From Escherichia phage AnnaReinhart_Bas75, in sequence record PQ850596.1: a stretch of DNA of 43,870 nt; one strand, 5' to 3'. Below are positions 3,315-42,401 of this stretch, piece by piece. Below the pieces are notes generated by a model. That model had not been told where the DNA came from. It was given only the letters and a program-made list of their open reading frames with translations, and did not search any database. How positions within the stretch are numbered: the stretch's first letter is position 1; every line of letters starts with the position of its first letter. The translations under genes were made by a program, and so were the position numbers.

Positions 3315-3335
3315 AGCCCCGAAAGGGGCTTTCTT
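3315..3335 (+). terminator. hairpin AGCCCC-gaaa-GGGGCT followed by TTCTT; intra-operon attenuator or processing hairpin after the portal gene
   Basis: Perfect 6-bp GC-rich stem with GAAA tetraloop and short T-tract, seen directly in sequence. Confidence 0.45.
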
Positions 3336-3340
3336 ATAGT

Positions 3341-4417
3341 ATGCTATTAACTTTAGCGCCACAGGGTTTATCTATGAGCTTACTTACATCCCTAATCAGC
3401 CATCAGATATGGCTGCAACGCACCGCATCCGGTGAGGTGAAAGACCTCACGCCGTTCATTCAGGAGATAAGGGATGAAATCAAACGGCAGGTGCTGTTAT
3501 TCGGTGACGACGGTCGCAGCACTGCGCGACTGAATAAACTGTTACGCGACCTGGAAGAAGCACTAACCGGTATTACGGGTGACTGGCAAACAAAGCTAAC
3601 AGACGACCTTAAGGAACTGGCGGCGTACGAGGCTGAGTGGAACGTAAAGACACTGACCGCCAACGTAGACGCGGAATTTGTTACGCCTACCGCTGAGCAG
3701 GTATGGGCCGCTGCCGAGTTTCAACCATTATCATTGAGCGACAAGCCCGTTGATTTCACCAAGCTGATGTCTGGATGGGGCGAAACGGAAGTAGCACGTC
3801 TTGTAACTGGAGTTAAGATGGGCTTTGTGCAAGGTCAAACCACACGGCAGATTGTTAAGAATGTTGTTGGCGCTGGTGGACTAGCCGACATCTCAGAACG
3901 TAACGCGACTACGGTAATCCGCACCGCGCTGTCCCACGTATCCAACGAGGCCCGTAACGAGACGTACCGCCAGAACGACGACATCATCGAGAAGTACGAG
4001 TGGGTGTCAACGCTTGACAGCCGCACCAGTACGATTTGCAGGGTCAGAGACGGGATGACGTGGGAAATTGGTAAGGGGCCGATGCCCCCAGCCCATCCGA
4101 ACTGCCGGTCGTGCACGGCTCCGGTAATCAGTTCCGAGTTCGACTTCCTCGATAAAGGCGCAAAACGCGCGGCTAAAGGCGCGGAAGGTGGCACTCAGGT
4201 AAGCGCAGACACCACTTACTACGAGTTCCTTAAACAACAACCGGCGTGGTTTCAGGACCAGGCGCTCGGCCCGGTGCGAGGTAAGATTTTCCGTAACAGC
4301 GGTATATCGCCGGAAGAGTTTCGCGTAATATCTGTAGATGGTTTCGGGAATCCGCTCACGCTTAAGCAGATGGCGGAACTCGATAAACGTGTTGCTGATT
4401 ATCTGAAAGGGGAATAA
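3341..4417 (+). CDS. head morphogenesis / minor capsid protein (Mu gpF / SPP1 gp7-like)
   Basis: 358-aa ORF following portal, the conserved position of F-like head morphogenesis proteins; alternative start at ATG 3374. Family assignment from position and general sequence character only. Confidence 0.55.
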   Translation: MLLTLAPQGLSMSLLTSLISHQIWLQRTASGEVKDLTPFIQEIRDEIKRQVLLFGDDGRSTARLNKLLRDLEEALTGITGDWQTKLTDDLKELAAYEAEWNVKTLTANVDAEFVTPTAEQVWAAAEFQPLSLSDKPVDFTKLMSGWGETEVARLVTGVKMGFVQGQTTRQIVKNVVGAGGLADISERNATTVIRTALSHVSNEARNETYRQNDDIIEKYEWVSTLDSRTSTICRVRDGMTWEIGKGPMPPAHPNCRSCTAPVISSEFDFLDKGAKRAAKGAEGGTQVSADTTYYEFLKQQPAWFQDQALGPVRGKIFRNSGISPEEFRVISVDGFGNPLTLKQMAELDKRVADYLKGE

Positions 4418-4881: not shown

Positions 4882-4905
4882 AAGGCCCCATTAAGGGGCC
4901 TTAGT
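4882..4905. terminator. bidirectional rho-independent terminator AAGGCCCC-atta-GGGGCCTT
   Basis: 8-bp GC-rich stem flanked by A-run upstream and T-run downstream; lies between convergent genes 4417..4878 (+) and 4908..5111 (-). Confidence 0.7.
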
Positions 4906-4907
4906 TT

Positions 4908-5111
4908 TCAACGGAATCTTGTGTTTAAATCCTGCTCGTGGACGACCCTCAGAACAGTGTCATAATCCCCGTATCTTCCAGGTTCAAATATATCTAATGC
5001 CTTGTAAGCAGACATTGCGTCAGGGAAAACCTGCAGAACCTTTTTAACCCGGCACAAGTCACCGTCGAACTCTTCATCGAACTCTTGAACTACTTCGCAA
5101 ATTGCATACAT
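4908..5111 (-). CDS. hypothetical small acidic protein (67 aa), single-gene minus-strand insert
   Basis: ORF with AGGAGG RBS 8 nt before ATG, own early-type promoter (5139..5167) and shared terminator; opposite orientation to flanking structural genes. Confidence 0.6.
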   Translation of the reverse strand: MYAICEVVQEFDEEFDGDLCRVKKVLQVFPDAMSAYKALDIFEPGRYGDYDTVLRVVHEQDLNTRFR

Positions 5112-5138
5112 TTTTCACCTCCTGTTTAAGTTAACTGA

Positions 5139-5167
5139 ATAGTACCCTATTATATTGGGGTGTGCAA
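5139..5167 (-). promoter_or_regulatory. sigma70-like promoter TTGCAC-N17-TACTAT containing palindrome AATAG-N4-CTATT
   Basis: Read on minus strand: TTGCAC accccaatataataggg TACTAT, then AGGAGG RBS and ATG of 4908..5111. Near-identical to sites at 14262, 37025 and 38441. Confidence 0.6.
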
Positions 5168-5442
5168 ACTATTTATTTACGTATTCCAGTTATTCCACCG
5201 AATTGTAAATGTTGGAATAAACTATTCGAATAGTTGACTTTTCACTAAAAATATGATAAGCTCCACCTGAGCTTGTGAAATATGAACAAGCGACCGCGGC
5301 GCGGGCAGGTAACGGAGCGGGACGTAAGTCCTGAGTGTAGTTACGCTGACGCGTTCGGAAGGGCCATACTCTATTGCTTGTGTAAAAAGTAACAGGTTTA
5401 CTGAGATTACGCCGTTTCTATGTTTAAATGATAAGGACTAGC

Positions 5443-7833: not shown

Positions 7834-7860
7834 GAGAGGGACTTCGGTCCCTCTTTTCAT
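7834..7860 (+). terminator. hairpin GAGAGGGAC-ttcg-GTCCCTCT followed by TTTCATTT (terminator/attenuator after capsid gene)
   Basis: 9-bp stem with one mismatch, UUCG tetraloop, T-rich tail. Confidence 0.6.
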
Positions 7861-12455: not shown

Positions 12456-12460
12456 AACTA

Positions 12461-12483
12461 AGGCCCCTTTCGGGGCCTTTTTC
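12461..12483. terminator. bidirectional terminator AGGCCCC-tttc-GGGGCCT with flanking A and T runs
   Basis: Between convergent major tail gene (+) and minus-strand cassette; same stem sequence as terminators at 4882 and 24518. Confidence 0.7.
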
Positions 12484-12714
12484 TCACTCATCAATATTAC
12501 TTCGATACTCCCGTAACTTCTCCAGACTTTCAATTGCTTCTGCTAAGTCGGTTCCGGTGTCCTTATGCCCGCGAAGACCCATGCACAATAACTTCTTCAA
12601 TGCGTGCTGTAGTGCGGGGTCACGGATGTCGAAGGCACGGAGAACATCGTAAACGTCTACGGTCATAGTGCTGCCGTGAGTGTTTGTCATTGTTCGGTTG
12701 TATTTTGAAGTCAT
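12484..12714 (-). CDS. hypothetical protein (76 aa), last gene of minus-strand insert
   Basis: Start overlaps stop of phosphoesterase gene; no recognisable motif. Confidence 0.5.
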   Translation of the reverse strand: MTSKYNRTMTNTHGSTMTVDVYDVLRAFDIRDPALQHALKKLLCMGLRGHKDTGTDLAEAIESLEKLREYRSNIDE

Positions 12715-13841
12715 CCCAGCATCTCCGGTGAAATAGTTAAACGTGCGACCTCGCCATATTCGGCGCTATAAGTAATTACATTTGCACTACGGCCTGACAT
12801 CCACCCGCCGCGGGAGGCATAGGCGTCTTTAGCCGCTAAGGTGCGGTGTTGCTCAACAATCATGTTACGGCTTTCTACAATCTTCTGGTGGTGCAGGTGG
12901 CCTACGTGGGCGTAGCTATAGACACTCTCACCGAACGCTTTGCGGAATTTGGCAATCATAACCGGTTCGATAGCATCGAATCGCGCCTTATGCCCGTGGT
13001 GAAAGAACAACGTCGTTTTTCCGTGTTGCACCATCTTGTAAACATCCGGCGACGTATCGACAATCACTCGGCTGTCGTTCGAATATAAAACTGTGAACAT
13101 TTCAGCCAGCCATACAGAGCCTACAGGGTCATGGTTCCCCTGTACGATAAGCAAGCGAACATTTTTATGTTTAACCAGTGCCATATCTACAACACGGCGT
13201 ACCATACGAATCATGTAGCGGACGAGTTTCTGGTAGCGAGTGTCTGCGTCCAACACGTGACGCGACTCAGGTGTAACGGCATCCAGACTATCGAAGTGCG
13301 CGAAATCACCCAGCAGGTTAATAACTCCTGTTCCTGCATCCGGTGCTTTCTGAAACGCCGCGTCGAACCAACGAGAGAACAGGTCTTCCGCAATCTTTAT
13401 ATCCCAGTCGTCGCCGCTCTCGTCGGCCCAGGCAAGCATACCGAGATGGAAATCAGATACCGTGTAAAGATTGAGTAGCTTGTCGTCGCGTTTGGCTCGA
13501 GTCGCTTTAGCCGGCGCAACTGGCGTAATCTCTGACTTCATGCCTTCAATCACGGCTTTCATCAACTCGACCTGACGTTCAGCGTCGGTGTCTGTCTTAA
13601 CCCATTGCAACTTAGTATTGCCGAACTCGTCTACCAGAGACGACGTCCCTTTAATCTTGTAGCCGTCTGGGACAAGGTGGCTAACGTCACGCCCGTGGCC
13701 TACACCTTTCTTAGCCAGCTTCGCTTTACGGATACGAATAACTCGGTCTGAGATGCCGTATTTACGGGCGATGTCTACATTCTTCATCCCGGCGTTCAAT
13801 TCTTCCTGTAACTGTTCGTCGGTTATTTTCTTCTGGGCCAT
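12711..13841 (-). CDS. HTH domain fused to calcineurin-like metallophosphoesterase
   Basis: 376 aa; N-terminal HTH-like segment (KNVDIARKYGISDRVIRIRKAKL); C-terminal phosphoesterase motifs in order: SDFHLG (D-x-H), GDFAHFD (GD-x-x-D), GNHD, then His-rich HHGH and GHLHH. Confidence 0.7.
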   Translation of the reverse strand: MAQKKITDEQLQEELNAGMKNVDIARKYGISDRVIRIRKAKLAKKGVGHGRDVSHLVPDGYKIKGTSSLVDEFGNTKLQWVKTDTDAERQVELMKAVIEGMKSEITPVAPAKATRAKRDDKLLNLYTVSDFHLGMLAWADESGDDWDIKIAEDLFSRWFDAAFQKAPDAGTGVINLLGDFAHFDSLDAVTPESRHVLDADTRYQKLVRYMIRMVRRVVDMALVKHKNVRLLIVQGNHDPVGSVWLAEMFTVLYSNDSRVIVDTSPDVYKMVQHGKTTLFFHHGHKARFDAIEPVMIAKFRKAFGESVYSYAHVGHLHHQKIVESRNMIVEQHRTLAAKDAYASRGGWMSGRSANVITYSAEYGEVARLTISPEMLG

Positions 13842-13906
13842 GCTTACTTCCTCGTGTTTAGGATTTGTCCTATTTAACCACAGTGGATTCCTTTAAATAA
13901 AGGCAA

Positions 13907-14233
13907 CTATTTACTTTCTGCGCCTATCGCCCACCCTGTCATTACCATTTGCAGACGGGTGGCTGTCAGTAGGCTATAGAAAGCATCTCCGTTTTTCTCT
14001 ACCGAACGTATCACTGTGTAGGTTACGGCCTGCGGGGGTAGGCCCGATTTACCAACCTCCACGGCGGCCTCACACTCGCGAACTGTAGAGTCCTTGAACG
14101 CCTTTACAATAGTAGGGTCGGCTTTATCAAGCACACCAGAAGTCATAAGAACAGATTCACTAAATACCTGTTCGCACGGGGCTCCAAAAGTAGCAAAAGA
14201 CATAAAACCCAGAGCTAGTACTAATTTACGCAT
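13907..14233 (-). CDS. secreted/periplasmic small protein (108 aa) with N-terminal signal peptide
   Basis: MRKLVLALGFMSFATFGA signal-peptide-like N-terminus; GAGGA RBS; first gene downstream of early-type promoter 14262..14290. Confidence 0.55.
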   Translation of the reverse strand: MRKLVLALGFMSFATFGAPCEQVFSESVLMTSGVLDKADPTIVKAFKDSTVRECEAAVEVGKSGLPPQAVTYTVIRSVEKNGDAFYSLLTATRLQMVMTGWAIGAESK

Positions 14234-14261
14234 AATTATTTCCTCAGTAAGTTACATGTGA

Positions 14262-14290
14262 ATAGTACCCTATTATATTGGGGTGTGCAA
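14262..14290 (-). promoter_or_regulatory. sigma70-like promoter TTGCAC-N17-TACTAT with AATAG-N4-CTATT palindrome
   Basis: Identical 29-bp core to 5139..5167; drives minus-strand cassette 14233..12484. Confidence 0.6.
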
Positions 14291-24517: not shown

Positions 24518-24540
24518 AAGGCCCCAAACGGGGCCTTTTC
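24518..24540. terminator. bidirectional terminator AAGGCCCC-aaac-GGGGCCTT
   Basis: Between convergent tailspike (+) and minus-strand replication-module genes; same stem as 4882 and 12461. Confidence 0.7.
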
Positions 24541-26282: not shown

Positions 26283-27072
26283 TTACTGCCCCCATGAACG
26301 CCTTTATAAATTCAGCGGCTACTTGCGGGACGATGGCATTGCCATAACCGCGCAATCGTCCCACTCTTGCGGATACCCCATGAGTTGCCTCGCAAAATCC
26401 GCCTGGTATGACTCTAGTTTCCTTATCTGCTCCATGGTTGGGTTTCCATGAATCCCATAAACATGAAGCCACATCTGGCGATAAAGAGTATCGTTCCTGA
26501 ATTTTCCGTCCTTTCTGTAAAATGTCTTGCTGAGATCCCCGTAATCCTTCCATCCTCGCGCCGTTGGTGTCGCCCATCCTCGCGCCAAAGATGATTCTTT
26601 TCCTTTCCTGTGGAGAGCCGACGCTGCAAGCTGGCAATACTGACGCCCCGCAGGCGTAGCCTTTGTCTTCCAGGTTAAGGAATACAAAATCGAGCCAGTG
26701 CTTCCCAATTGCTGCTGCAACCTGCTCTCCAAACAGCAATTCAGGCTTGCACTCTCTGATGAGCCTGAGAAATGCTGGGGCAAGGTGTCGATCGTCGTCA
26801 AATCCGAGAGACTTACCGGCAACGCTAAACGGCTGGCAAGGTGGTGATCCTGTCCAGAGTCGAGTGCTTTCTGGTATTCCTGCCAGCTGGAGTGCAAGGG
26901 GCCACCCTCCGATTCCGGCAAAGAAGTGACACTGTGTAAATCCTTCCAGGTCTGAAGGGGTGACTTCGGTGATTGATCGTTCATCGACATATCCGTAAGG
27001 AATTAGTTTATTGTTAATTAATTCACGCAGCCACGCGGCTGCGCCTTTATCCCATTCGTTGTAATAGTTCAT
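26275..27072 (-). CDS. DNA (cytosine-5)-methyltransferase
   Basis: 265 aa; motif I FAGIGG and motif IV PPCQPFSVAGK (catalytic Pro-Cys), plus FGEQV (ENV-like). Confidence 0.75.
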   Translation of the reverse strand: MNYYNEWDKGAAAWLRELINNKLIPYGYVDERSITEVTPSDLEGFTQCHFFAGIGGWPLALQLAGIPESTRLWTGSPPCQPFSVAGKSLGFDDDRHLAPAFLRLIRECKPELLFGEQVAAAIGKHWLDFVFLNLEDKGYACGASVLPACSVGSPQERKRIIFGARMGDTNGARMEGLRGSQQDILQKGRKIQERYSLSPDVASCLWDSWKPNHGADKETRVIPGGFCEATHGVSARVGRLRGYGNAIVPQVAAEFIKAFMGAVNE

Positions 27073-27260
27073 TTCGCCACCAGCACCAGCTCTTTACGCC
27101 CGAACGCCGTAACGTTACCCGTTACATCTTCGATAACCAGTTTACCGTTCGACTCGACGAACACCATATCAACGGCAACAGGACGACGGGTCTTAACGTT
27201 GAAAATCATGTCACCCGGTACGATGTCACGTGCTGGTTTGCGGTCGTATTCGTGTTTCAT
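27069..27260 (-). CDS. hypothetical protein (63 aa)
   Basis: Downstream of promoter 27295..27323; start overlaps VRR-NUC 3' end. Confidence 0.5.
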   Translation of the reverse strand: MKHEYDRKPARDIVPGDMIFNVKTRRPVAVDMVFVESNGKLVIEDVTGNVTAFGRKELVLVAK

Positions 27261-27579
27261 TTCTCAATTCCTTATATTGTTGGTGTATGTGCTTACTATA
27301 ATAGTCTGCTATTAGGGTGTCAATCTGTTTTATCGAACCAACGACAAAAACATTTGCACCACGTTTACGCATCCGCTCGTGCTCTCGTAACTGGTGCGGG
27401 TCTGGCTTCGTGTTTTCGTCTTTCTTAACCTCGACGAACCAGATGATGCCACCAGGGAGAATTACCAGCAGGTCGGGGGCGCCGGAGCGCCCCTCATAAG
27501 ACAGCTTACGAACGAGGCCACCAATGGCCTCGAATCGCTCTTTTGCGTATTTCTGCACGCGCCCCTCAGGCGTACTCAT
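27226..27579 (-). CDS. VRR-NUC domain nuclease
   Basis: 117 aa; PD-(D/E)xK-type core (GAPDLLVIL ... FVEVKK). Confidence 0.65.
   Translation of the reverse strand: MSTPEGRVQKYAKERFEAIGGLVRKLSYEGRSGAPDLLVILPGGIIWFVEVKKDENTKPDPHQLREHERMRKRGANVFVVGSIKQIDTLIADYYSKHIHQQYKELRNETRIRPQTST
27295..27323 (-). promoter_or_regulatory. sigma70 promoter TTGACA-N17-TATAGT with AATAG-N4-CTATT palindrome in spacer
   Basis: Minus strand reads TTGACA ccctaatagcagactat TATAGT; embedded in 3' coding region of VRR-NUC gene, upstream of 27069..27260. Confidence 0.55.
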
Positions 27580-27791: not shown

Positions 27792-29962
27792 TAGCGTTTT
27801 AACTCCTGACCTTCCGCTACAAGAGGGAACCCCTCCGCCCATTCTGGTAATTCGCACATCAATCGCTCAAGCTCTGCGACATTGTATTCCGGCGTATCTG
27901 GAGTTTCGCAGATAATCTCATCGTGGACATGAAGTACAATTGGATAACCGTTTGCTTCTACGTTCAGCAGCGCGTTGGCCAGCAAATCACGGCACAACGC
28001 CTGAGTGCAGTTTTCCACCAGTTTACCAGAGTAGGTGTACTGGAAGCCCCACTGCCGGGTTAACTGGTTTTCGCCCTGGTACTTGATGCGCACGTTAGTA
28101 GACACCTTTCCATCTTCGTCTGTCTCTTTCGACACACTTAATCCGACGCCCGGGTATGACATAACGCGACCCGACGGCAACGTCATGCGCAACCACCAGC
28201 CCGCGACTTTGTCGCCGTTGTTGTCTGTCTCTATGTTACGCGAAAACTTAACGCCTCGCGGTCCTGCGGTGAACTCTTTACCTGGATTGCGGATAGCGGC
28301 CATAGCTGCGTCTTCAATATCTCGCCAGAAAGCTACTGTTTCAGGGTGTGACTCTCGCCACATACGCTTGATAGCGTCACAGGTACGCCACACTTTCTTA
28401 TCAAGAATATACGATGGTCGGTCATCCTTCTCCCCGGGTCGCGGCGGTCGCTTGGCTTCCTGAATACGTGCCCATTCATAGCCGCGTGCAGTAGCCGCCC
28501 AGATGTGGTCCGGGAAAGTACCGTCCATTGTTTTTGACATATCAACAAGGTCAAGTCCGAGGTTCTTAGCAAACTGAACGAAAGCGCCAACACCACCAGC
28601 GTAGCCGAGGCCAAGCTCGCAGGCTTTACCAATCTGGCGCAAGTCTTTGCGTTCCTTCTTAATGTAATCCGGCTCCATGCCGAACATCTTACCCGCGGTT
28701 ACACAGTAAATGTCCAGCCCGGCGCGGAACGTATCTAGCGCGGTTTCTTCGCCTGCCAGCCACGCAAGCCCCCGACCTTCAACGTTAGAGTAATCGGCGA
28801 CGACAAACTTTTTTCCGGCTTCCGGGATAATGCAGCTACGCACCGTCGATGCCGTTAGCTTGGCTACGTCGAAACGGCGATGCGCACGACCCTTAAGTAG
28901 CGCTGAAATGCCCTTATCCAGTTCATCATCGTGATAGTACCCGCGCGCCAGGTTCTGTGGTTGGAAGCCTTTACCTGCGAACCGTAACGTACGCTTGGCC
29001 CCACCGTACTGGATGCAACCACGGCGGCGGTCGTCCGACGAGCGACCCAACAGCAGCGGGTTATATTTCGTTGACGCAGTGGACGCGGCCCCGAGGCGCA
29101 TTTCTATAATTGTGCGGGCGTCGTCGGGTAAATCCTCATCCGCCAGCAGGTCGTTAAGCGTTGACTTCTGTGCATTGTGTATGCGGTGCGCGGGCGCAAG
29201 TTCACGCAGAATCGGCAGGAAGTCTTTACCAGTAAGCGAGCCGCCGTATTTACGTTGAGCTTCTTCCTGTAACTGTGCCTTGTGCTTCTCTACGGCTTCA
29301 ATAGCGGCTTCCGCCAGTGCGACGTCAACCTTAAATCCGCGGTCGTTGATTAACTGGTCAAGCTCCAGTACACGGTCTTCGAACTCGGAGTTACCCCAAC
29401 GCGGCAGCTTATGGAAGACTTCACGCATCGCAGTGATGTCGCTCACGGCGTACCTGATGAACATCGCCCACTCGTCAGGGTGAGTTTCTGCGGTGTAGCG
29501 GCGGATTTTGTAGTTCTTCGGCGTCGGTTTAGAGAAACGCTTAATCAGAGCCTTGCCGCGTTTATCTTTCGCGTTGTCTGCAGACACGCCCAGCACTTCG
29601 CACAGCGCATCGAGTGACCCCGGCAGCGCGTGACGAAACGCCCAAATCATCGTATCAATGGCGTTGCTTACGGGAATATCAAAGCCCCAGCAGTGTTTCA
29701 TGATGAGCCTGTCGAACATTGAGCCGTTGTGCCACACCATCTTAATACGACTGTTCGGCTTAACCAGGCGGCGCAGTGCGCGGTGCAAATCACCCGGCAT
29801 GTCGCTTCCGTCGGTGCAATCCCATACCCGCACAGGCTCGTCGTCAAAAGCATATGTGCAGATAAGCACTTCGGTAGTCGGGTGTTCGGCGTAAGCGTAG
29901 GAGCCGACTTTCTTTAAATCGGCTTCGGAGAATGTTTCAAAGTCCAGGTATAAGTAGCTCAT
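27782..29962 (-). CDS. DNA polymerase, family A, with 3'-5' exonuclease domain
   Basis: 726 aa from ATG 29962 (AAGGA RBS); Exo I motif LDFETFS, motif B-like RQIGKACELGLGYAGG, motif C VLHVHDEI. Confidence 0.85.
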   Translation of the reverse strand: MSYLYLDFETFSEADLKKVGSYAYAEHPTTEVLICTYAFDDEPVRVWDCTDGSDMPGDLHRALRRLVKPNSRIKMVWHNGSMFDRLIMKHCWGFDIPVSNAIDTMIWAFRHALPGSLDALCEVLGVSADNAKDKRGKALIKRFSKPTPKNYKIRRYTAETHPDEWAMFIRYAVSDITAMREVFHKLPRWGNSEFEDRVLELDQLINDRGFKVDVALAEAAIEAVEKHKAQLQEEAQRKYGGSLTGKDFLPILRELAPAHRIHNAQKSTLNDLLADEDLPDDARTIIEMRLGAASTASTKYNPLLLGRSSDDRRRGCIQYGGAKRTLRFAGKGFQPQNLARGYYHDDELDKGISALLKGRAHRRFDVAKLTASTVRSCIIPEAGKKFVVADYSNVEGRGLAWLAGEETALDTFRAGLDIYCVTAGKMFGMEPDYIKKERKDLRQIGKACELGLGYAGGVGAFVQFAKNLGLDLVDMSKTMDGTFPDHIWAATARGYEWARIQEAKRPPRPGEKDDRPSYILDKKVWRTCDAIKRMWRESHPETVAFWRDIEDAAMAAIRNPGKEFTAGPRGVKFSRNIETDNNGDKVAGWWLRMTLPSGRVMSYPGVGLSVSKETDEDGKVSTNVRIKYQGENQLTRQWGFQYTYSGKLVENCTQALCRDLLANALLNVEANGYPIVLHVHDEIICETPDTPEYNVAELERLMCELPEWAEGFPLVAEGQELKRYAK

Positions 29963-30134: not shown

Positions 30135-30154
30135 AAGGCCCAATGAAGGGCCTT
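30135..30154 (-). terminator. rho-independent terminator AAGGCCC-N-GGGCCTT with T-run on minus strand
   Basis: Directly downstream of stop of 30174..30800. Confidence 0.6.
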
Positions 30155-30173: not shown

Positions 30174-30800
30174 TTAGCGGCGGCGACGTTCGCGGCGCGG
30201 TGCTTCATCTTCTTCGTCGTCTTCCAGGTCATTGACGCTCGCAGCGACTTTAGAACCGCCGAACGCTTTGCCTTCGCCAACGTATTTAATCGCCAGCAGG
30301 TTAACGCCGAGGACTTTGTATTTCTGGCTGAACCAGATTTCAACGCTTACGTTAGCTAAGCATCCGCTGTAAACCTGTTCACCTTCAATCTGTTCGCCGT
30401 CTACGTTGAAGTCCTGCTCTACCTGAGTCTCACCTTTTTTAGAGGTTACAATCAGCGGCTGTTTCTGTGCCTTCGCTTTGAAGTAGAAGCCTTCCGGGAA
30501 GTCTTCAAACGGATTGTCGCGCTCGGCAATGTCTTTAATCGCGCATTTATCCATGTGCTTACCTTCACCGTAGTTGGACTTCATCCATTTCTCGGCAGCG
30601 GCTGCGCCTAACGCTTCTTCAACTACAGCGTAAACGGTGTCGTAGAGTGCATCGATTTGAGCATGGTCAGACGGCAGGATGATAGTCGCGCTGTACTGGC
30701 CTTTAGTGATTGAGCCATCATCGTTTTCACGGTCTTTTTCACGTTCAAATACGTTAACCCAAGCAGTGTTTACTTTACGCAGATTCAGTTTAATACCCAT
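30174..30800 (-). CDS. putative ssDNA-binding protein (function tentative)
   Basis: 208 aa; C-terminal acidic stretch DLEDDEEDEA then Arg-rich tail; own strong promoter and terminator suggest high expression. Confidence 0.4.
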   Translation of the reverse strand: MGIKLNLRKVNTAWVNVFEREKDRENDDGSITKGQYSATIILPSDHAQIDALYDTVYAVVEEALGAAAAEKWMKSNYGEGKHMDKCAIKDIAERDNPFEDFPEGFYFKAKAQKQPLIVTSKKGETQVEQDFNVDGEQIEGEQVYSGCLANVSVEIWFSQKYKVLGVNLLAIKYVGEGKAFGGSKVAASVNDLEDDEEDEAPRRERRRR

Positions 30801-30859: not shown

Positions 30860-30888
30860 ACTATAATAGCTAACTATTCAGGTGTCAA
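30860..30888 (-). promoter_or_regulatory. sigma70 promoter TTGACA-N17-TATAGT with AATAG-N4-CTATT palindrome
   Basis: Minus strand reads TTGACA cctgaatagttagctat TATAGT; upstream of 30174..30800. Confidence 0.6.
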
Positions 30889-32627: not shown

Positions 32628-33128
32628 TTATTCTTCTTCGAAATACTTGTTCTTGATTGCTGTCAAGCGTTCCAGGTATTCAGCCAGGTCTTCGTCTTTA
32701 ATCGCTGCAATCTTCATTTTCTTACCTGTGAACTCTTCCAGCAGTTCATCAGAATCATCGCACGCGGCATCGCTCGGACCTTCGTTAATTGCATCGTCGA
32801 TAGCCTGAATCTGGTCGCGCAGAGACTTATAGTCTACTTCTTCTTTCTCTTCTTCCGGCTCTGGCGTCGTTTCCTCTACTTTAGCTTTACGCGGCTTGCG
32901 TTTTGGCTTCTCTTCTTCTGCCGGTTTAGTGTCAACGATGTCTTCACCTTCTACCGGGATTTCTTTTGTTGCTTCTTCAGCGCACTCAGCTACCGCTTCT
33001 TTGGTGTACGATACCGTCTCTACTTCCAGCGGCGTGGCAACCTGAACAACTTGTTTCGCACTGTTCGCGGCAATCAGTTCGTGCGCAACTACGAAACGTT
33101 CCAGTAATACTAAGAATTTCTCTAACAT
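32628..33128 (-). CDS. hypothetical highly acidic protein (166 aa)
   Basis: Glu/Asp-rich with a central Lys/Arg patch; good RBS GGAGAATAAATAATG. Confidence 0.5.
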   Translation of the reverse strand: MLEKFLVLLERFVVAHELIAANSAKQVVQVATPLEVETVSYTKEAVAECAEEATKEIPVEGEDIVDTKPAEEEKPKRKPRKAKVEETTPEPEEEKEEVDYKSLRDQIQAIDDAINEGPSDAACDDSDELLEEFTGKKMKIAAIKDEDLAEYLERLTAIKNKYFEEE

Positions 33129-33152
33129 TATTTATTCTCCTGTTTATTTGGG

Positions 33153-33317
33153 CTACTCGCCGTCGCCTTCTGTAAGGCTATCGTCTATTAATTCAAATTT
33201 ACCGTTTGGGTGTTGAATAGCTTCTTGCCCGCAATGGTCGCAGACAACAAGTTTATCGAACCCATCAAACTCATCCCCTACTACGCAAGAAAGTACAAAT
33301 TTATGTTTTGTGCACAC
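33153..33317 (-). CDS. hypothetical small Cys-rich protein (start uncertain)
   Basis: Protein-like frame with paired Cys (SCVVG ... VCDHCG) downstream of promoter 33409..33437; only GTG at 33317 found as start and the frame stays open upstream. Confidence 0.3.
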   Translation of the reverse strand: MCTKHKFVLSCVVGDEFDGFDKLVVCDHCGQEAIQHPNGKFELIDDSLTEGDGE

Positions 33318-33408
33318 TTCTTGCGGAGCGCCGAAAATTGCTCGAAAACCTTTAGCTATGGCCCCAGTGATTGTGTTCTTATCTGCCCCTCTCGTTTGGT
33401 ATGGGCTA

Positions 33409-33437
33409 ACTATAATAGCGAACTATTCACATGTCAA
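33409..33437 (-). promoter_or_regulatory. sigma70 promoter TTGACA-N17-TATAGT with AATAG-N4-CTATT palindrome
   Basis: Minus strand reads TTGACA tgtgaatagttcgctat TATAGT; followed by conserved AAACGAGAGG leader. Confidence 0.6.
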
Positions 33438-33457
33438 TGGGCTTTTCTAAAATAATT

Positions 33458-33471
33458 AATATGGTACTATT
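33458..33471 (+). promoter_or_regulatory. second palindromic box (AATAT-ggta-CTATT) in divergent control region before the XRE gene
   Basis: Imperfect copy of the AATAG-N4-CTATT box 44 bp from the first; overlaps TACTAT that may be the -10 of the plus-strand promoter. Confidence 0.4.
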
Positions 33472-33501
33472 CACATATCAACTGACTAAGGAGTAATTGA
33501 C

Positions 33502-33717
33502 ATGCAACCATCTGAACTAGGCATCCGTGTAGAACAACGCCGCAAAGAACTCGGCATCTCCCAGCGCCGTCTGGCGGTCCTGGCTGGCGTTTCCCAGGGC
33601 GCGATTAACCAGCTTGCGCTCGGGGTAACTCAGGACGTCCGGCCGGCGACGCTGTTCAAGCTGGCGGAAGTGCTACAAGTAGACGCCAAGTGGCTGGCGT
33701 TAGGTGAAGGGGCTTAA
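33502..33717 (+). CDS. XRE-family (Cro/CI-type) HTH transcriptional regulator
   Basis: 71 aa; classic HTH_3 signature LGISQRRLAVLAGVSQGAINQLALG; AAGGAG RBS; only plus-strand gene inside the minus-strand replication module. Confidence 0.8.
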   Translation: MQPSELGIRVEQRRKELGISQRRLAVLAGVSQGAINQLALGVTQDVRPATLFKLAEVLQVDAKWLALGEGA

Positions 33718-33734: not shown

Positions 33735-35942
33735 CTATTCCAAATCCTCCTCTGTCACCACCAGCATCTCATTTGGTTCGTATAGTGTCTTCGGCCTTAA
33801 TCTATCCCCTATTCTTTCGGGTATACGATATGTTCTCGGTACTACTTCGCCGTTAGCATCGCAACCAAGCATTAGTTCTCCATCTTTCAACATTTTATCA
33901 AGATGGGTGTTAGTCACAGAGAAGTCACCGGAACGAGCCACTATCTGCTGCTGAGTAAAACCGCGACCTGTGTCATCTGACTGTTGCAGGTCTTCCAGTG
34001 CCGAAAGTATTGACTCCTTCCTTACTTCATCCCTGCCGCGTTTAACTTCTTCCTTTACTTTTTGCTTACCTTCTTTCGTCAACCCTTCTTCCCGCTCTTT
34101 CTCCTCGTCAGTTTTGAACGGCTCGAAACCCCACGGCATCAACACAAGCGCCTTGTGTGGTTCAGGAAGGTCCAGGTTTACGATTGTGCCGTATTCTTCT
34201 GTGCCCCCCAGGAACTCAACCGCACGGTACTCTTTCGGCGGCGGAGCTTCGCGGAACTGCACAGACTCCAGCACCATGCCAACCGTTTTCTGTTGAGGAC
34301 CGTGCTTAAATTTCGAGTGGTATACGTTTATTTGACGGTCGGTTGCACGTTCGATTGTCAGTTCCACGTCAACACCCGCATACAGCGCCCCACTGCCGCG
34401 TGCTTTCTTTCCACCCTTCGGCGTATGGTGGACAACGCCTACTGCGGCTTTAGTTGCATCGCGTACTTCTTTCAGAATGGCGATAACTTTACCCATGCCG
34501 ATTGCTGTTGATGAACTGTTCTCGTCGAACTTATCAATCGTCAGTGCCAGGGTCTGGTTAAGGGTGTCGAACGCAACCATGCCAATTGGCTCGTCGCCAG
34601 CAGTTTCGCGCATTAACTTAATCAGGCTTTTAAGTTTGCCGACTTCGCCCATATCGATGACGTGTACATAATCTTTACCTTCCCCGCCATATTTAGCCGC
34701 TAGTGCATCAATACGGGTGCGTGTAGCTGCGCCACCCTCACCATCAATATAGAAATGGTGGCAACGTTGGGTGTCAGCCCCCGCAAACCGGTACCCGGCG
34801 GCGCTCAGGTACATCATCCCCAGCGTATAGAATGATTTGTACGTGCCGGATTCCCCGACAATATCCCAGATACAATCCGACGGCATGTACCCCTCAACGA
34901 CGAAATCAGCCTTTACCGGTTCTGGTAACTCGTCCTCTTCTTCAAGGTCTTCCAGCGTGCAAGTTACAGGCTCCTCGTTCTCTGTGCGGTGCAGTTCTTC
35001 AATCTCTTCTTCCGGTAAATCAGGCAGAGCCGCACGAATGCTGTTAATACTGATAGGTTGCTTGTCTACGTTAAGCTCGTCTGGCAGGCCGCACATACGC
35101 AGGGCCAAATGCTGTCGGCGGTTAAGCTCGGTGCAAGCGCCGTTGTTTGTATGCTGGCAGACAAAGCGCACTTCTTTACCGTCGAGCATTATGCTGGTGG
35201 AGCCCTTGCCTGTATGCAGATGTTCGTTAGGGCATGGCACTTCGTACCCGCGCCCGGAAGATAAAGCGTCAAGGCCAAGCTCGGCTTCGCAGAAGTGTGC
35301 TATATCCGCGTTAAGCCCATGCTCATCAGCGGCAAGTGTTTTAGCCTCACGCTTACGCAACCCCATCTCTTCGGCTTTCTTGATGTACCGCTCGGCACGG
35401 ATAACACGCCCTTCTGTAACCGTTATCTTCGACTCTTTGTGCGGCAGGTAGATAAGGCGGTTGCCATCTTCCGTGCAGTGGTCGCGCAACGCTTCGTCTA
35501 TTTCTAACTCTGCACAAATAGCACGTTGCACCATCCACGCGTCGTTAGAGTTAAACGGCGTGCGAGCTGGAACCAGAACGCGGAAAGCGTAATCTCCGTT
35601 TTTACACACATGCTGATGCGATGCCGTTGTATGCAGAATATTGAAGAACGGTGCGTTCTTGAATTTGCGGGTAAGGTCGCGGTACTGAGTACGGTTGAGA
35701 TGGTCAAAATCGAACTTAACCACACTGTCTTCCAGAATAGCGTTCTTACGGCGACCGCCAACAGGCGCAATAGCTTTCTGTTTAATCTTGGCCGCGTCGT
35801 ACTCTTCCTTAGTCCATGACGGGTCCACGGATAAACGCTTCGATGTATCGCAGACATACTCCACAAACTGCTCGAGCGGCATCTCACGCGCTACAGGGTT
35901 TTTATCGAATGTGTTACGCAGCGTTGCAAAAACAATATTCAT
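33735..35942 (-). CDS. DNA primase/helicase (P-loop NTPase)
   Basis: 735 aa; Walker A GESGTYKS; RecA-like region with VVHHTPKGG; size and position typical of phage primase-helicase. Confidence 0.6.
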   Translation of the reverse strand: MNIVFATLRNTFDKNPVAREMPLEQFVEYVCDTSKRLSVDPSWTKEEYDAAKIKQKAIAPVGGRRKNAILEDSVVKFDFDHLNRTQYRDLTRKFKNAPFFNILHTTASHQHVCKNGDYAFRVLVPARTPFNSNDAWMVQRAICAELEIDEALRDHCTEDGNRLIYLPHKESKITVTEGRVIRAERYIKKAEEMGLRKREAKTLAADEHGLNADIAHFCEAELGLDALSSGRGYEVPCPNEHLHTGKGSTSIMLDGKEVRFVCQHTNNGACTELNRRQHLALRMCGLPDELNVDKQPISINSIRAALPDLPEEEIEELHRTENEEPVTCTLEDLEEEDELPEPVKADFVVEGYMPSDCIWDIVGESGTYKSFYTLGMMYLSAAGYRFAGADTQRCHHFYIDGEGGAATRTRIDALAAKYGGEGKDYVHVIDMGEVGKLKSLIKLMRETAGDEPIGMVAFDTLNQTLALTIDKFDENSSSTAIGMGKVIAILKEVRDATKAAVGVVHHTPKGGKKARGSGALYAGVDVELTIERATDRQINVYHSKFKHGPQQKTVGMVLESVQFREAPPPKEYRAVEFLGGTEEYGTIVNLDLPEPHKALVLMPWGFEPFKTDEEKEREEGLTKEGKQKVKEEVKRGRDEVRKESILSALEDLQQSDDTGRGFTQQQIVARSGDFSVTNTHLDKMLKDGELMLGCDANGEVVPRTYRIPERIGDRLRPKTLYEPNEMLVVTEEDLE

Positions 35943-36067
35943 TTCTTTTTCTCCGCACGTTCTAAGGCTTCCTGCATACGGCGCATTGCGCGGTTCATCT
36001 TTACCGGTGCGAAGAAGTCAGCGCCGTGTTTCTGGCGGCGTAGCTGTGGAACTATTAACTTTGTCAT
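35939..36067 (-). CDS. hypothetical small basic protein (42 aa; unlisted)
   Basis: AAGGA RBS; stop overlaps primase ATG (ATGA). Confidence 0.35.
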   Translation of the reverse strand: MTKLIVPQLRRQKHGADFFAPVKMNRAMRRMQEALERAEKKK

Positions 36068-36136
36068 TGTATAATCCTTATGCTTACTTTGATGATTTGT
36101 ACTTTAGCCCCGACGTTCTGGCGTTGGGGTTTCTTT

Positions 36137-36427
36137 TTACCGTTTAGCCAACCCTTCCAGCAAATTTTTATACTCTTCAAAATATTCCTCGACCAAATCA
36201 TCGCCGAAATAGAAGTCGATATACTCGAGATTATCTCTTACGTTAAGCGATGCCGACATGGTGCTTAGTTGGCGTAAGCTAATTAGCTTCATTTCTGTTT
36301 CTACGCAGAAAGGCCGGTAGGTATCAAGATGGCAAGAGATATTGAAGCATAAAGCGAACTCTCCGGCCACGGAGTGAACCATATACACTTCGTTTTCTGC
36401 TTTATTGTGGAAAATTACGCCTTTCAT
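36137..36427 (-). CDS. hypothetical protein (96 aa)
   Basis: Start overlaps stop of upstream HTH gene; acidic C-terminus. Confidence 0.5.
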   Translation of the reverse strand: MKGVIFHNKAENEVYMVHSVAGEFALCFNISCHLDTYRPFCVETEMKLISLRQLSTMSASLNVRDNLEYIDFYFGDDLVEEYFEEYKNLLEGLAKR

Positions 36428-36606
36428 TTCACGTTCTCCTTAATCCATGCTTCGACTTTATTACGGTCAAATGTTCCCGGTAAACGGCGGCCCATAACCT
36501 TAATACAGCAGTCAGGGAATTTGCCGCTGCGCAACCAGTTATTAATCGTCTGACGTGTCACCCCGATACGTTCAGCTACTTCATTCTGCGTCATATAATG
36601 CGACAT
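36424..36606 (-). CDS. AlpA/excisionase-type HTH DNA-binding protein
   Basis: 60 aa from ATG 36606 (CAGGAGATATAAAAATG); motif TQNEVAERIGVTRQTINNWLRSGKFP. ORF-track version extends to 36720 but lacks RBS. Confidence 0.6.
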   Translation of the reverse strand: MSHYMTQNEVAERIGVTRQTINNWLRSGKFPDCCIKVMGRRLPGTFDRNKVEAWIKENVK

Positions 36607-36703
36607 TTTTATATCTCCTGTTTGTTTGGTGAAACTGAGTATAGGATAGCGGGAATGTAAAAGCAACCAATCTCTGTAATATTTAATCTTTACAAAAATG
36701 TTA

Positions 36704-36733
36704 TTGAAAGTTCTTGACACATGTTTGTATAAT
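36704..36733 (+). promoter_or_regulatory. candidate sigma70 promoter TTGAAA-N18-TATAAT
   Basis: Good -35/-10 with 18-bp spacer; no protein-coding gene follows for about 350 bp. Confidence 0.4.
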
Positions 36734-36757
36734 GGTTTTGGGACTTGTATATATTAC

Positions 36758-36795
36758 GGAGTTGACGAACCCTCCCCGAGGGATTCGTCAACTCC
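36758..36795 (+). other. long inverted repeat / RNA hairpin (17 bp stem with one bulge, CCC loop)
   Basis: GGAGTTGACGAA-CCCTC ccc GAGGG-a-TTCGTCAACTCC read directly from sequence. Confidence 0.6.
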
Positions 36796-36932
36796 TCCCA
36801 GACAGCTGAGATGCTTGCCTTGGGGTTTAAGGATAAGTGTATCTAAATCTCATTTAAAGAAGTAACCCGCTGAAATATCTACTGTTTCTTAATGTGCCGT
36901 AGATTCGCAACCGTAAAAATGTAACGATTATT

Positions 36933-36955
36933 GGGCAGGCTTAAGCCTGCCCTTT
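36933..36955 (+). terminator. hairpin GGGCAGGC-ttaa-GCCTGCCC followed by TTTAGTT
   Basis: Perfect 8-bp stem, plus-strand orientation, in a non-coding region. Confidence 0.5.
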
Positions 36956-37024
36956 AGTTACCAAGTAATAAGAATAAAGGCACAACCCTCCCCGAAGAAT
37001 CACAACGGCAACGTAACTATTCTC

Positions 37025-37053
37025 TTGCACACCCCAATATAATAGGATACTAT
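37025..37053 (+). promoter_or_regulatory. sigma70-like promoter TTGCAC-N17-TACTAT with AATAG-N4-CTATT palindrome
   Basis: Near-identical to 5139 and 14262 copies; followed by CGAAACGAGA leader, AGAGGAG RBS and ATG 37088. Confidence 0.6.
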
Positions 37054-37087
37054 TCACTTATCGAAACGAGACAGAGGAGTGGTGGTT

Positions 37088-37279
37088 ATGTTTAAGAAGG
37101 GTCAGTTGATTAAAACGATGTACGGTAGCTTAGGTATTATTGAAAAGAAATCGGCAGTGTACCGAAGTTCTTATGTCGTTAGCTTACTCAGGGAGCACGG
37201 GTTAAGTTCCGCGGCGTATTACCAAGAGTATGAAATGAAACTAATTGGCAACAATTTTAAATTCAAAGGGGTGAAGTGA
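37088..37279 (+). CDS. hypothetical early protein (63 aa)
   Basis: First gene after promoter 37025; RBS AGAGGAG. Confidence 0.5.
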   Translation: MFKKGQLIKTMYGSLGIIEKKSAVYRSSYVVSLLREHGLSSAAYYQEYEMKLIGNNFKFKGVK

Positions 37280-38440: not shown

Positions 38441-38469
38441 TTGCACACTAAGATAGAATAGGCTACTAT
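38441..38469 (+). promoter_or_regulatory. sigma70-like promoter TTGCAC-N17-TACTAT with AATAG-N4-CTATT palindrome
   Basis: TTGCAC actaagatagaataggc TACTAT; followed by ACAAACGAGAGGAG leader and ATG 38501. Confidence 0.6.
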
Positions 38470-38500
38470 TCATTTACACAAACGAGAGGAGAGACGGAAG

Positions 38501-39819: not shown

Positions 39820-40005
39820 ATGGTACAGAGATACGATGTATGGTGCATAGAAGATATTTTTAAGAATAGCCACGACGGTAGCTATGTTAAATACGAAGAC
39901 TACGCGAAACTCGAAGCCGAGTTGCAGAAATACAAGGACCAGTTTCCTGATTACGTTGAGTGCGCGAACTGTGGGTCAGTTACACATGTGGAGGGGGTGG
40001 AGTGA
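39820..40005 (+). CDS. hypothetical protein (61 aa), CxxC pair at C-terminus
   Basis: CAGGAGA RBS; ECANCGS motif. Confidence 0.45.
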   Translation: MVQRYDVWCIEDIFKNSHDGSYVKYEDYAKLEAELQKYKDQFPDYVECANCGSVTHVEGVE

Positions 40006-41583: not shown

Positions 41584-41604
41584 TCTATTTTCTGCAATGA
41601 CTAG

Positions 41605-41633
41605 TTGACTATTACCTACGACCCTATTATATT
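41605..41633 (+). promoter_or_regulatory. sigma70-like promoter TTGACT-N17-TATATT
   Basis: Followed by CGACAACGAGAACGGAG leader similar to those after promoters 37025 and 38441. Confidence 0.5.
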
Positions 41634-42219: not shown

Positions 42220-42401
42220 CTGACCGCGAATATGAAAAGATGATGGTTGAGGCCGTTAACAGCGGCGTAGACATCGGACACGTGATGCGCGTCCTGAATA
42301 CTAAAATCGCGGTAGCCGAGCAAATGGTGGAGTCGCTTTATGAGACGCGCCGCGAACTGATTAACCGCTTCAACCTGAACAAAGGTGACACCAATGCCTA
42401 A
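42216..42401 (+). CDS. hypothetical protein (61 aa)
   Basis: ATGA overlap; chain of translationally coupled small ORFs. Confidence 0.45.
   Translation: MTDREYEKMMVEAVNSGVDIGHVMRVLNTKIAVAEQMVESLYETRRELINRFNLNKGDTNA

Follow-up and report, generated by a model that had tools for sequence, protein, structure and literature searches.

What is the element that recurs at position 37025 of the Escherichia phage AnnaReinhart_Bas75 genome (PQ850596.1), and what reads it? An earlier note on this DNA had described four nearly identical early promoters carrying the inverted repeat AATAG-N4-CTATT and had suggested that a single dimeric protein switches them together. Here, we follow the element through the window (the whole stretch of DNA analysed, 43,870 nucleotides) and through related phages, and we propose, on comparative sequence grounds, that the palindrome is the operator of one small phage repressor that probably shuts its promoters off together.

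Bas75 is a Kagunavirus infecting E. coli. A 4-kb piece of its genome around the 37025 site is 99.3% identical in Escherichia phage VerenaMeyer_Bas76 and matches 442 phage records, nearly all of them Kagunavirus or Jerseyvirus (subfamily Guernseyvirinae). The relatives of Bas75 are siphoviruses of 41-45 kb that are described as virulent. Its structural genes lie on the plus strand up to ~24.5 kb and its replication genes on the minus strand from ~24.5 to 36.6 kb, followed by plus-strand small genes and lysis genes. The blocks in which the coding strand switches are flanked by a repeated bidirectional terminator, the hairpin AAGGCCCC-N4-GGGGCCTT (12460-12479, 24518-24537 and 30135-30154), with related GC-rich terminator hairpins at 3315-3330, 4882-4902 and 7834-7855; the repeated hairpin is also carried by the phages Jersey, VSiP, TS6 and LM02P1.

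Promoters that carry the palindrome

All four TTGCAC-N17-TACTAT elements of the earlier note, with AATAG-N4-CTATT over the -10, are present on the strands and at the positions it had given (promoters A to D, here class 1; Table 1). Their near-identity also holds, with C and D the same over 32 nt, A one base off and B differing in the spacer alone, where the palindrome is kept within a sequence unlike that of A, C and D. The good ribosome-binding sites that had been noted downstream are there as well: in class 1 the start codon lies 28-35 nt past the -10, behind a GGAG-type site. The genome holds four matches to a degenerate class-1 pattern against 0.12 expected, and in the genome-wide scan that the earlier note had called for, a position weight matrix built from the four sites scores these at 49-57 bits and the next match at -0.4. 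As sigma-70 promoters they match the consensus at 7/12 positions, retaining TTG and the A2/T6 of the -10, and a sigma-70 consensus scan of Bas75 did not recover them. The cassettes headed by C and D, both on the minus strand, are each complete, with a promoter, the gene or genes it serves and an intrinsic terminator.

The list of four was sound in its members and incomplete as a list, since perfect palindromes also lie at 27300-27313, 30865-30878 and 33414-33427. These belong to promoters E, F and G, all on the minus strand and of the form TTGACA-N4-AATAG-N4-CTAT/TATAGT (class 2, TTGACA-17-TATAGT). A consensus scan ranks them as the top three sigma-70 matches of the minus strand, at 11/12 each, and their palindrome fills the spacer between -35 and -10, 6 bp nearer the -35 than in class 1.

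Table 1. Operator-bearing promoters, imperfect operator copies and candidate regulators of Bas75, in window coordinates
Feature	Position	Strand	Elements	Context
Promoter A (class 1)	37025..37056	+	-35 TTGCAC 37025-37030; operator AATAGGATACTATT 37041-37054; -10 TACTAT 37048-37053	gene starting 37088; RBS GAGGAG ~37074-37079
Promoter B (class 1)	38441..38472	+	-35 38441-38446; operator AATAGGCTACTATT 38457-38470; -10 38464-38469	DUF7170 gene starting 38501
Promoter C (class 1)	5136..5167	-	-35 5162-5167; operator 5138-5151; -10 5139-5144	self-contained cassette: gene 4908..5111, terminator 4882-4902
Promoter D (class 1)	14259..14290	-	-35 14285-14290; operator 14261-14274; -10 14262-14267	cassette 12484..14233; terminator 12460-12479 at its end
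Promoter E (class 2)	27295..27323	-	-35 TTGACA 27318-27323; operator AATAGCAGACTATT 27300-27313 in 17-bp spacer; -10 TATAGT 27295-27300	within 3' end of VRR-NUC gene; upstream of 27069..27260 and methylase/helicase genes
Promoter F (class 2)	30860..30888	-	-35 TTGACA 30883-30888; operator 30865-30878; -10 TATAGT 30860-30865	upstream of ssDNA-binding protein gene 30174..30800 and polymerase group
Promoter G (class 2)	33409..33437	-	-35 TTGACA 33432-33437; operator 33414-33427; -10 TATAGT 33409-33414	heads leftward replication-gene block; divergent from Cro-like gene
Operator H, imperfect	33458-33471	+	AATATGGTACTATT	promoter region of Cro-like gene, 33426..33473
Cro-like gene promoter, candidate 1	33426-33453		TTCACA-16-TAAAAT, 10/12	G abuts -35; H covers start site
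Cro-like gene promoter, candidate 2			class-1-like; -10 TACTAT 33465-33470; poor -35 CTTTTC	
Promoter I (class 3)	41600..41633	+	imperfect operator ACTAGTTGACTATT 41600-41613 over -35 TTGACT 41605-41610; -10 TATATT 41628-41633; 17-bp spacing	
Imperfect operator	5229..5242	+	AATAGTTGACTTTT; overlaps -35-like TTGACT	divergent from promoter C; everted CTATTCGAATAG (5217-5228) precedes it
Imperfect operator-like site	3335..3348	none	TATAGTATGCTATT	directly behind portal-gene terminator
Cro-like protein	33502..33717	+	71 aa, single-domain Cro/C1-type (HTH_3)	favoured operator-binding repressor (predicted)
HTH_17 protein	36424..36606	-	60 aa, MerR/Xis-like winged helix	alternative binder (candidate); first gene of leftward helicase-primase operon

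Allowing one mismatch raises the number of palindrome matches in the genome to 12, against 0.9 expected, of which five are imperfect. Four of these (33458, 41600, 5229 and 3335) have a promoter-like or intergenic context; the fifth, at 35769, lies inside the helicase-primase gene and is not among the top matches to an operator weight matrix. The orthologs of promoter I in Jersey, fBC-Eco01 and LM02P1 are likewise one mismatch off the palindrome, and the fBC-Eco01 record annotates a host-type promoter at the position of the 5229 site. At the position of the 3335 site, fBC-Eco01 carries a whole inserted minus-strand gene with a class-1 promoter, and the Bas75 site may be the scar of a lost minus-strand cassette. 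Within 3315-3348, TATAGTATGCTATT occurs with a minus-strand TACTAT directly against the portal-gene terminator.

Several features in the surroundings of these sites deserve mention on their own account. Single half-sites (CTATT or AATAG) occur just upstream of the -35 at several class-1 promoters and at their Jersey orthologs, for example at 37017-37021 and, on the minus strand, at ~5171-5175; these, and the everted CTATTCGAATAG, might give a binding protein auxiliary contacts. Immediately downstream of promoter G, Bas75 has ~250 bp (33129-33400) that are extra relative to Bas76; other Kagunaviruses, Bas73 and Bas70 among them, share this segment at 95-99.7% identity. It includes a short minus-strand ORF for a cysteine-rich product of 54 aa (33153..33317) and has the look of a variable slot for accessory genes, served by the operator-controlled promoter G. 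Upstream of promoter A, the plus strand carries a near-consensus promoter, TTGAAA-18-TATAAT, that has no palindrome; it is followed by ~215 nt without a credible ORF and then by a strong intrinsic terminator (36933-36952) that sits just upstream of promoter A. The RNA of this region (36704-36952) folds at -74.2 kcal/mol (z = -5.0 against shuffles) with a long perfect hairpin at 36758-36795, matched no Rfam family, and has the same layout in fBC-Eco01, making it a candidate small RNA or leader of the phage.

The palindrome as a putative operator

Is the palindrome an element in its own right, or a by-product of copied promoters? An unbiased tally of every 5-mer inverted repeat (gap 0-10 nt) puts AATAG-N4-CTATT far ahead of any other palindrome of Bas75, with seven perfect copies against 0.06 expected. 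An operator weight matrix gives seven sites at 22-24 bits, four at 16-17 and everything else at 8 or below; on shuffled sequence the best score is 10.6 on average and 16.3 at maximum, so that the four imperfect sites are individually borderline. The earlier note had considered that the motif might prove equally frequent inside coding sequence. The sites of fBC-Eco01 speak against that outcome: of the seven perfect ones orthologous to those of Bas75, six fall between genes, a count taken from the curated annotation of that phage because a greedy ORF caller over-called short ORFs at A, B and G.

Each of the seven perfect 14-bp copies lies inside the -35, spacer and -10 of a promoter, yet the distance from the -35 to the start of the palindrome is 4, 7, 10-11 or 0 nt, depending on promoter and genus. 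Class 2 has the 4-nt distance, the Jersey ortholog of D has the 7-nt one and class 1 that of 10-11 nt; the promoter at 41600 and its orthologs have the palindrome over the -35 itself. Orthologous promoter sites are found in fBC-Eco01, LM02P1, Jersey and 44 IMG/VR loci. Among 119 distinct class-2 sequences (from the 44 loci and three genomes), the half-sites and the -35 are near-invariant, and the central bases and flanks vary. A palindrome that occupies three or four registers, with near-invariant half-sites and a drifting centre and flanks, thus behaves as an independent operator placed for repression. Confined to the core promoter without keeping to one register, it fits steric repression, as we infer it, rather than activation from one face of the DNA.

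The same palindrome ranks top in Jersey (four perfect and three imperfect copies), fBC-Eco01 (seven) and LM02P1 (eight); from VSiP (Cornellvirus) and TS6 it is absent, also when one mismatch is tolerated. In a scan of IMG/VR for the operator with its -10 signature (AATAGNNNNCTATTATAGT), multi-copy matches were confined to Kaguna/Jersey-type contigs of 41-45 kb; no multi-copy outgroup phage was found, and single matches elsewhere were at chance level. VSiP keeps the orthologous divergent promoter (TTGCAC-18-TATAGT) with the palindrome decayed to ATTAG-TTTA-GTATT. In its place, orthologous promoters of VSiP and TS6 have TATTA-N6-TAATA overlapping the -10, in three perfect copies in each phage that are conserved between both, with imperfect copies at further orthologous promoters. 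The two palindromes fit a common 16-bp frame: TAATAG-N4-CTATTA in Jersey and TATTAn-N4-nTAATA in the Cornell-type phages share length and symmetry axis and differ at the symmetric positions 3/14 and 6/11 alone.

In sum, a shared 14-bp palindrome sits in the core of at least seven, and probably 11, host-type promoters. Sequence and comparative evidence supports the suggestion that it is the operator of one dimeric protein, but the regulon is larger than the four sites first proposed: it also includes the three leftward replication promoters and the Cro-like gene's own promoter, and probably the promoter at 41605. The same evidence supports the link that had been drawn between the minus-strand cassettes of the structural block and the small-gene block on the right. 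A role as a transcribed RNA hairpin or a cruciform was rejected, given that the palindrome lies upstream of the predicted start and that its stem is merely 5 bp.

How might such a system work? The elements are promoters of the sigma-70 type, for host RNA polymerase, that share a 14-bp dyad-symmetric putative operator. This operator covers the -10 in class 1, fills the spacer in class 2, overlaps the -35 at 41600 and 5229, and covers either the -10 or the start site at the promoter of the Cro-like gene. Bound there as a dimer, a small HTH protein of the phage would obstruct RNA polymerase and, as it accumulates, would turn down all units jointly, among them the replication operons, the two minus-strand cassettes and the gene of the binder itself. 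Such a scheme would resemble Cro-type early shut-off, in a strictly virulent phage that has no CI partner. The sites, with their enrichment, placement and conservation, and the folds of the proteins are observed; protein binding, repression, its timing and the identity of the binder are what we infer here. On timing, which the earlier note had put as early, RNA-seq of phage K1B4 classes most orthologs of the genes behind these promoters as 'middle', at gene level and with coarse time points (PMC12645636). We regard this palindrome-operator scheme, with the Cro-like protein as binder, as the best explanation available and as a moderately probable one.

Candidate binders and competing explanations

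In light of the palindrome being a probable operator, which protein might bind it? A Pfam census of 49 non-structural Bas75 proteins gave three DNA-binding candidates: an HTH_3 protein, an HTH_17 protein and a NinH-like protein. The HTH_3 product (33502..33717; Pfam E=1.2e-12) is Cro-like, its best solved relative being 434 Cro (71 aa, E=1.8e-6). It has orthologs in all three genera and is the sole regulator common to them; in VSiP it is the one and only HTH-domain protein among 48 non-structural proteins. Its gene adjoins operators G (perfect) and H (imperfect), which flank or cover its promoter, an arrangement that suggests autoregulation. Cornell-type phages combine a diverged Cro-like ortholog with a variant operator in the same frame.

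Does the operator follow the recognition helix of the Cro-like protein? In its six residues the helix reads QGAINQ in Bas75 and QSLITH in Jersey, yet the 14-bp core operator is identical, and the QSLITH of Jersey and the QSAISH of the Cornell type are similar, yet their operators differ at two symmetric positions. At the base flanking the half-site, T occurs in 46/46 Jersey half-sites (helix QSLITH), as against ~50% T and ~40% G throughout the Kagunavirus groups (helix QGAINQ), K2 included, a covariation of flank base and helix that is confounded with phylogeny. Because the Cro-like protein is common to the three genera, because the Cornell-type variant operator occurs with this HTH alone, and because the outer operator position follows its helix, we favour it as the binder and consider this assignment, predicted from sequence, somewhat better than an even bet.

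A second option, which we hold to be unlikely, is that the HTH_17 protein (36424..36606) would be made first, from its operator-free promoter, and would then bind the palindrome as two copies. That promoter (TTGCTT-17-TATACT, ~36640-36668) indeed has no palindrome, a feature that suits this option. The distribution of the protein agrees with that of the operator: at 60% identity or more, the HTH_17 set is exactly Kagunavirus plus Jerseyvirus (442 records), and VSiP and TS6 have neither the protein nor the AATAG palindrome. The Bas75 and Jersey proteins are 80% identical, in line with the conserved operator, and RNA-seq of K1B4 classes the HTH_17 ortholog as 'early' (PMC12645636). Nevertheless, LM02P1 has eight perfect palindromes despite an altered HTH_17 recognition helix (VTRQTINNW to VSPMTLNRW), and the Cornell-type phages have an analogous promoter-embedded palindrome system without any HTH_17 protein. 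Nor does the flank preference of the operator track the HTH_17 helix type: Kagunavirus group K2 shares the HTH_17 helix of Jersey, yet has the Kagunavirus preference, so that K2 equals K1 and both are unlike Jersey.

The fold of the HTH_17 protein, a winged-helix domain and nothing more, points both ways. One structural neighbour is RacA, whose binding site is a 14-bp inverted repeat, but its neighbours are mostly BldC, Xis, RdfS and Cox, which bind direct repeats head-to-tail. Moreover, were the repressor the first product, one would expect it to silence the replication genes before they are needed. A search for diverged relatives (IMG/VR loci and 5.8 billion proteins) gave proteins that are all at least 68% identical, with the exception of one weak partial match (56% over 27 residues), and hence no intermediates for covariation.

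Two further candidates were set aside. The distribution of the NinH-like protein does not follow that of the operator, since VSiP has it at 72% conservation. For a clade-specific third binder, the genes present in Jersey and LM02P1 and absent in VSiP were scanned, and a DNA-binding signature was found in HTH_17 alone. As a separate matter of gene order, the helicase-primase lies on the plus strand of VSiP (34476-37127), directly behind the Cro-like gene, and on the minus strand in Kagunavirus and Jerseyvirus, behind the HTH_17 gene (33735-36606 in Bas75); which small HTH protein heads the operon thus depends on the lineage.

A third explanation is that the palindrome is bound by some other factor, be it a host protein conserved in E. 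coli and Salmonella or an unrecognised phage protein, or that it marks recombination or the boundary of a cassette. A strict test of helix-operator covariation is passed by neither of the HTH proteins, and the phages encode several small clade-specific proteins without a known fold family, although, apart from HTH_17, the clade-specific proteins have no DNA-binding signature. The identity of A, C and D (31-32/32) exceeds functional need, the spacer of B being variable, and this suggests recent copying of a promoter cassette. However, a recombination signal would need no placement in the core promoter, and the palindrome is kept in promoters that have no other flanking similarity, always over the -35, spacer or -10. 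A shared host factor is further disfavoured by the Cornell-type phages, which infect Salmonella as Jerseyvirus does but with a different palindrome. We consider this explanation, as worded here, quite improbable; the general claim that the binder is another factor or that the palindrome has a non-operator role we would call unlikely.

Finally, it is very improbable that the motif acts positively, whether as a promoter for a phage RNA polymerase, as an AlpA/Q-type antiterminator loading site or as a MerR-type activator site. MerR-type activation works on a dyad in an over-long spacer of 19-20 bp, through a regulator with a dimerisation or effector domain; here, the spacers are 17 bp and the HTH_17 protein, for all that it belongs to a MerR-like fold group, has neither domain. 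Q-type antiterminators have the size needed for a ring within the RNA exit channel and use one asymmetric element at a fixed position. AlpA, with a binding element likewise set between -35 and -10, is a Q-like protein of larger size that has DNA-contact residues 128-142, one asymmetric 6-bp element and the need for a sigma-dependent pause (PMC9371919), whereas the candidate here has 60 aa and a MerR/Xis-like fold, the site is symmetric and its register is variable. PHIRE does recover the motif as a repeated 'phage promoter', and a promoter for a phage RNA polymerase has been proposed (PMC9825357), but no RNA polymerase family was found among the 49 non-structural proteins of Bas75 or the 48 of VSiP, and the hexamers are ordinary sigma-70 ones. 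That class-1 promoters are moderate sigma-70 matches, in a genome where terminators are frequent, would suit positive control; against it, the class-2 promoters are already near-consensus, and activation from one face of the DNA does not allow a palindrome whose register varies.

Returning to the Cro-like protein as the favoured binder, we tentatively extend the proposal to the subfamily: nearly all non-structural transcription in these virulent phages, from the replication and small-gene operons to the moron-like cassettes of the structural block, might stand under one stand-alone Cro-like repressor without CI, with genus-specific specificity groups, an extension that we consider doubtful as yet. 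The proposed groups would be nAATAG-N4-CTATTn in Kagunavirus, TAATAG-N4-CTATTA in Jerseyvirus and TATTA-N6-TAATA in the Cornell type. If true, they would decide cross-repression among co-infecting relatives, amounting to an immunity-like barrier between lytic phages. In a variant of this reading, HTH_17, with its MerR/Xis fold, would be the palindrome-reading global repressor, an unusual role for that fold.

Known systems and significance

The motif is already known as a sequence. In fBC-Eco01, PHIRE gave seven sites with the consensus tgAATAGTa-ccTATTat-T, which were ascribed to a phage-encoded RNA polymerase (PMC9825357) and are annotated at positions orthologous to the Bas75 sites; in phage Golestan, it gave seven promoters (PMC7203180). 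The assignment to a phage RNA polymerase, made in both papers, is wrong. Unlike these accounts, ours notes the dyad symmetry, the flanking sigma-70 hexamers, the different registers and a candidate binder. In the Jersey record, the host-type promoters at 29238-29266, 32925-32953, 39893-39920 and 42343-42371 coincide with palindrome sites; they are annotated by similarity to TTGACA-N15-18-TATAAT alone, and the embedded operator carries no annotation. In the literature, we found no paper that notes the dyad symmetry of the motif, reads an operator in it or puts forward a repressor.

Phages of the genera Kagunavirus and Jerseyvirus are often considered for phage therapy and biocontrol, and the BASEL collection paper names them as attractive chassis for synthetic biology. 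As their transcription programme is essentially uncharacterised, a promoter-embedded operator is a useful reading, giving a map of at least nine transcription units with two candidate regulators. It also supplies a natural set of promoter-operator variants for engineering and timing, comprising strong and moderate promoters, three registers and three genus-specific operators. No general principle is changed, a small dimeric HTH repressor at a palindromic operator being textbook and the circuit tidy but conventional; the value lies in the annotation and engineering of these phages and not in any surprise of principle.

Among known systems, the closest likeness is to phage 434. The Bas75 candidate is a single-domain HTH_3 protein of 71 aa, the same length as 434 Cro; like OR and OL of 434, the Bas75 sites place a 14-bp dyad over the core of early-type sigma-70 promoters; and in both phages a divergent promoter pair lies beside the regulator gene. 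The operators of 434 are 14-bp ACAA-N6-TTGT, to which the half-site AATAG is unrelated. Unlike 434, Bas75 has no CI repressor, no integrase and no tripartite operator array, its group is strictly virulent, and its binding is predicted from sequence. In addition, its operators stand singly over at least 7-11 promoters genome-wide, including the replication operons and the structural-block cassettes.

In this last respect, the Bas75 sites recall the gp71 stoperators of mycobacteriophage L5, where likewise one short motif in many genome copies serves one presumed phage regulator that silences many units. L5 is temperate, and its stoperators are asymmetric 13-bp sites, mostly in transcribed regions and in one orientation, that block elongation. 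The Bas75 sites, in contrast, are palindromic and lie in core promoters, where the bound protein would block initiation.
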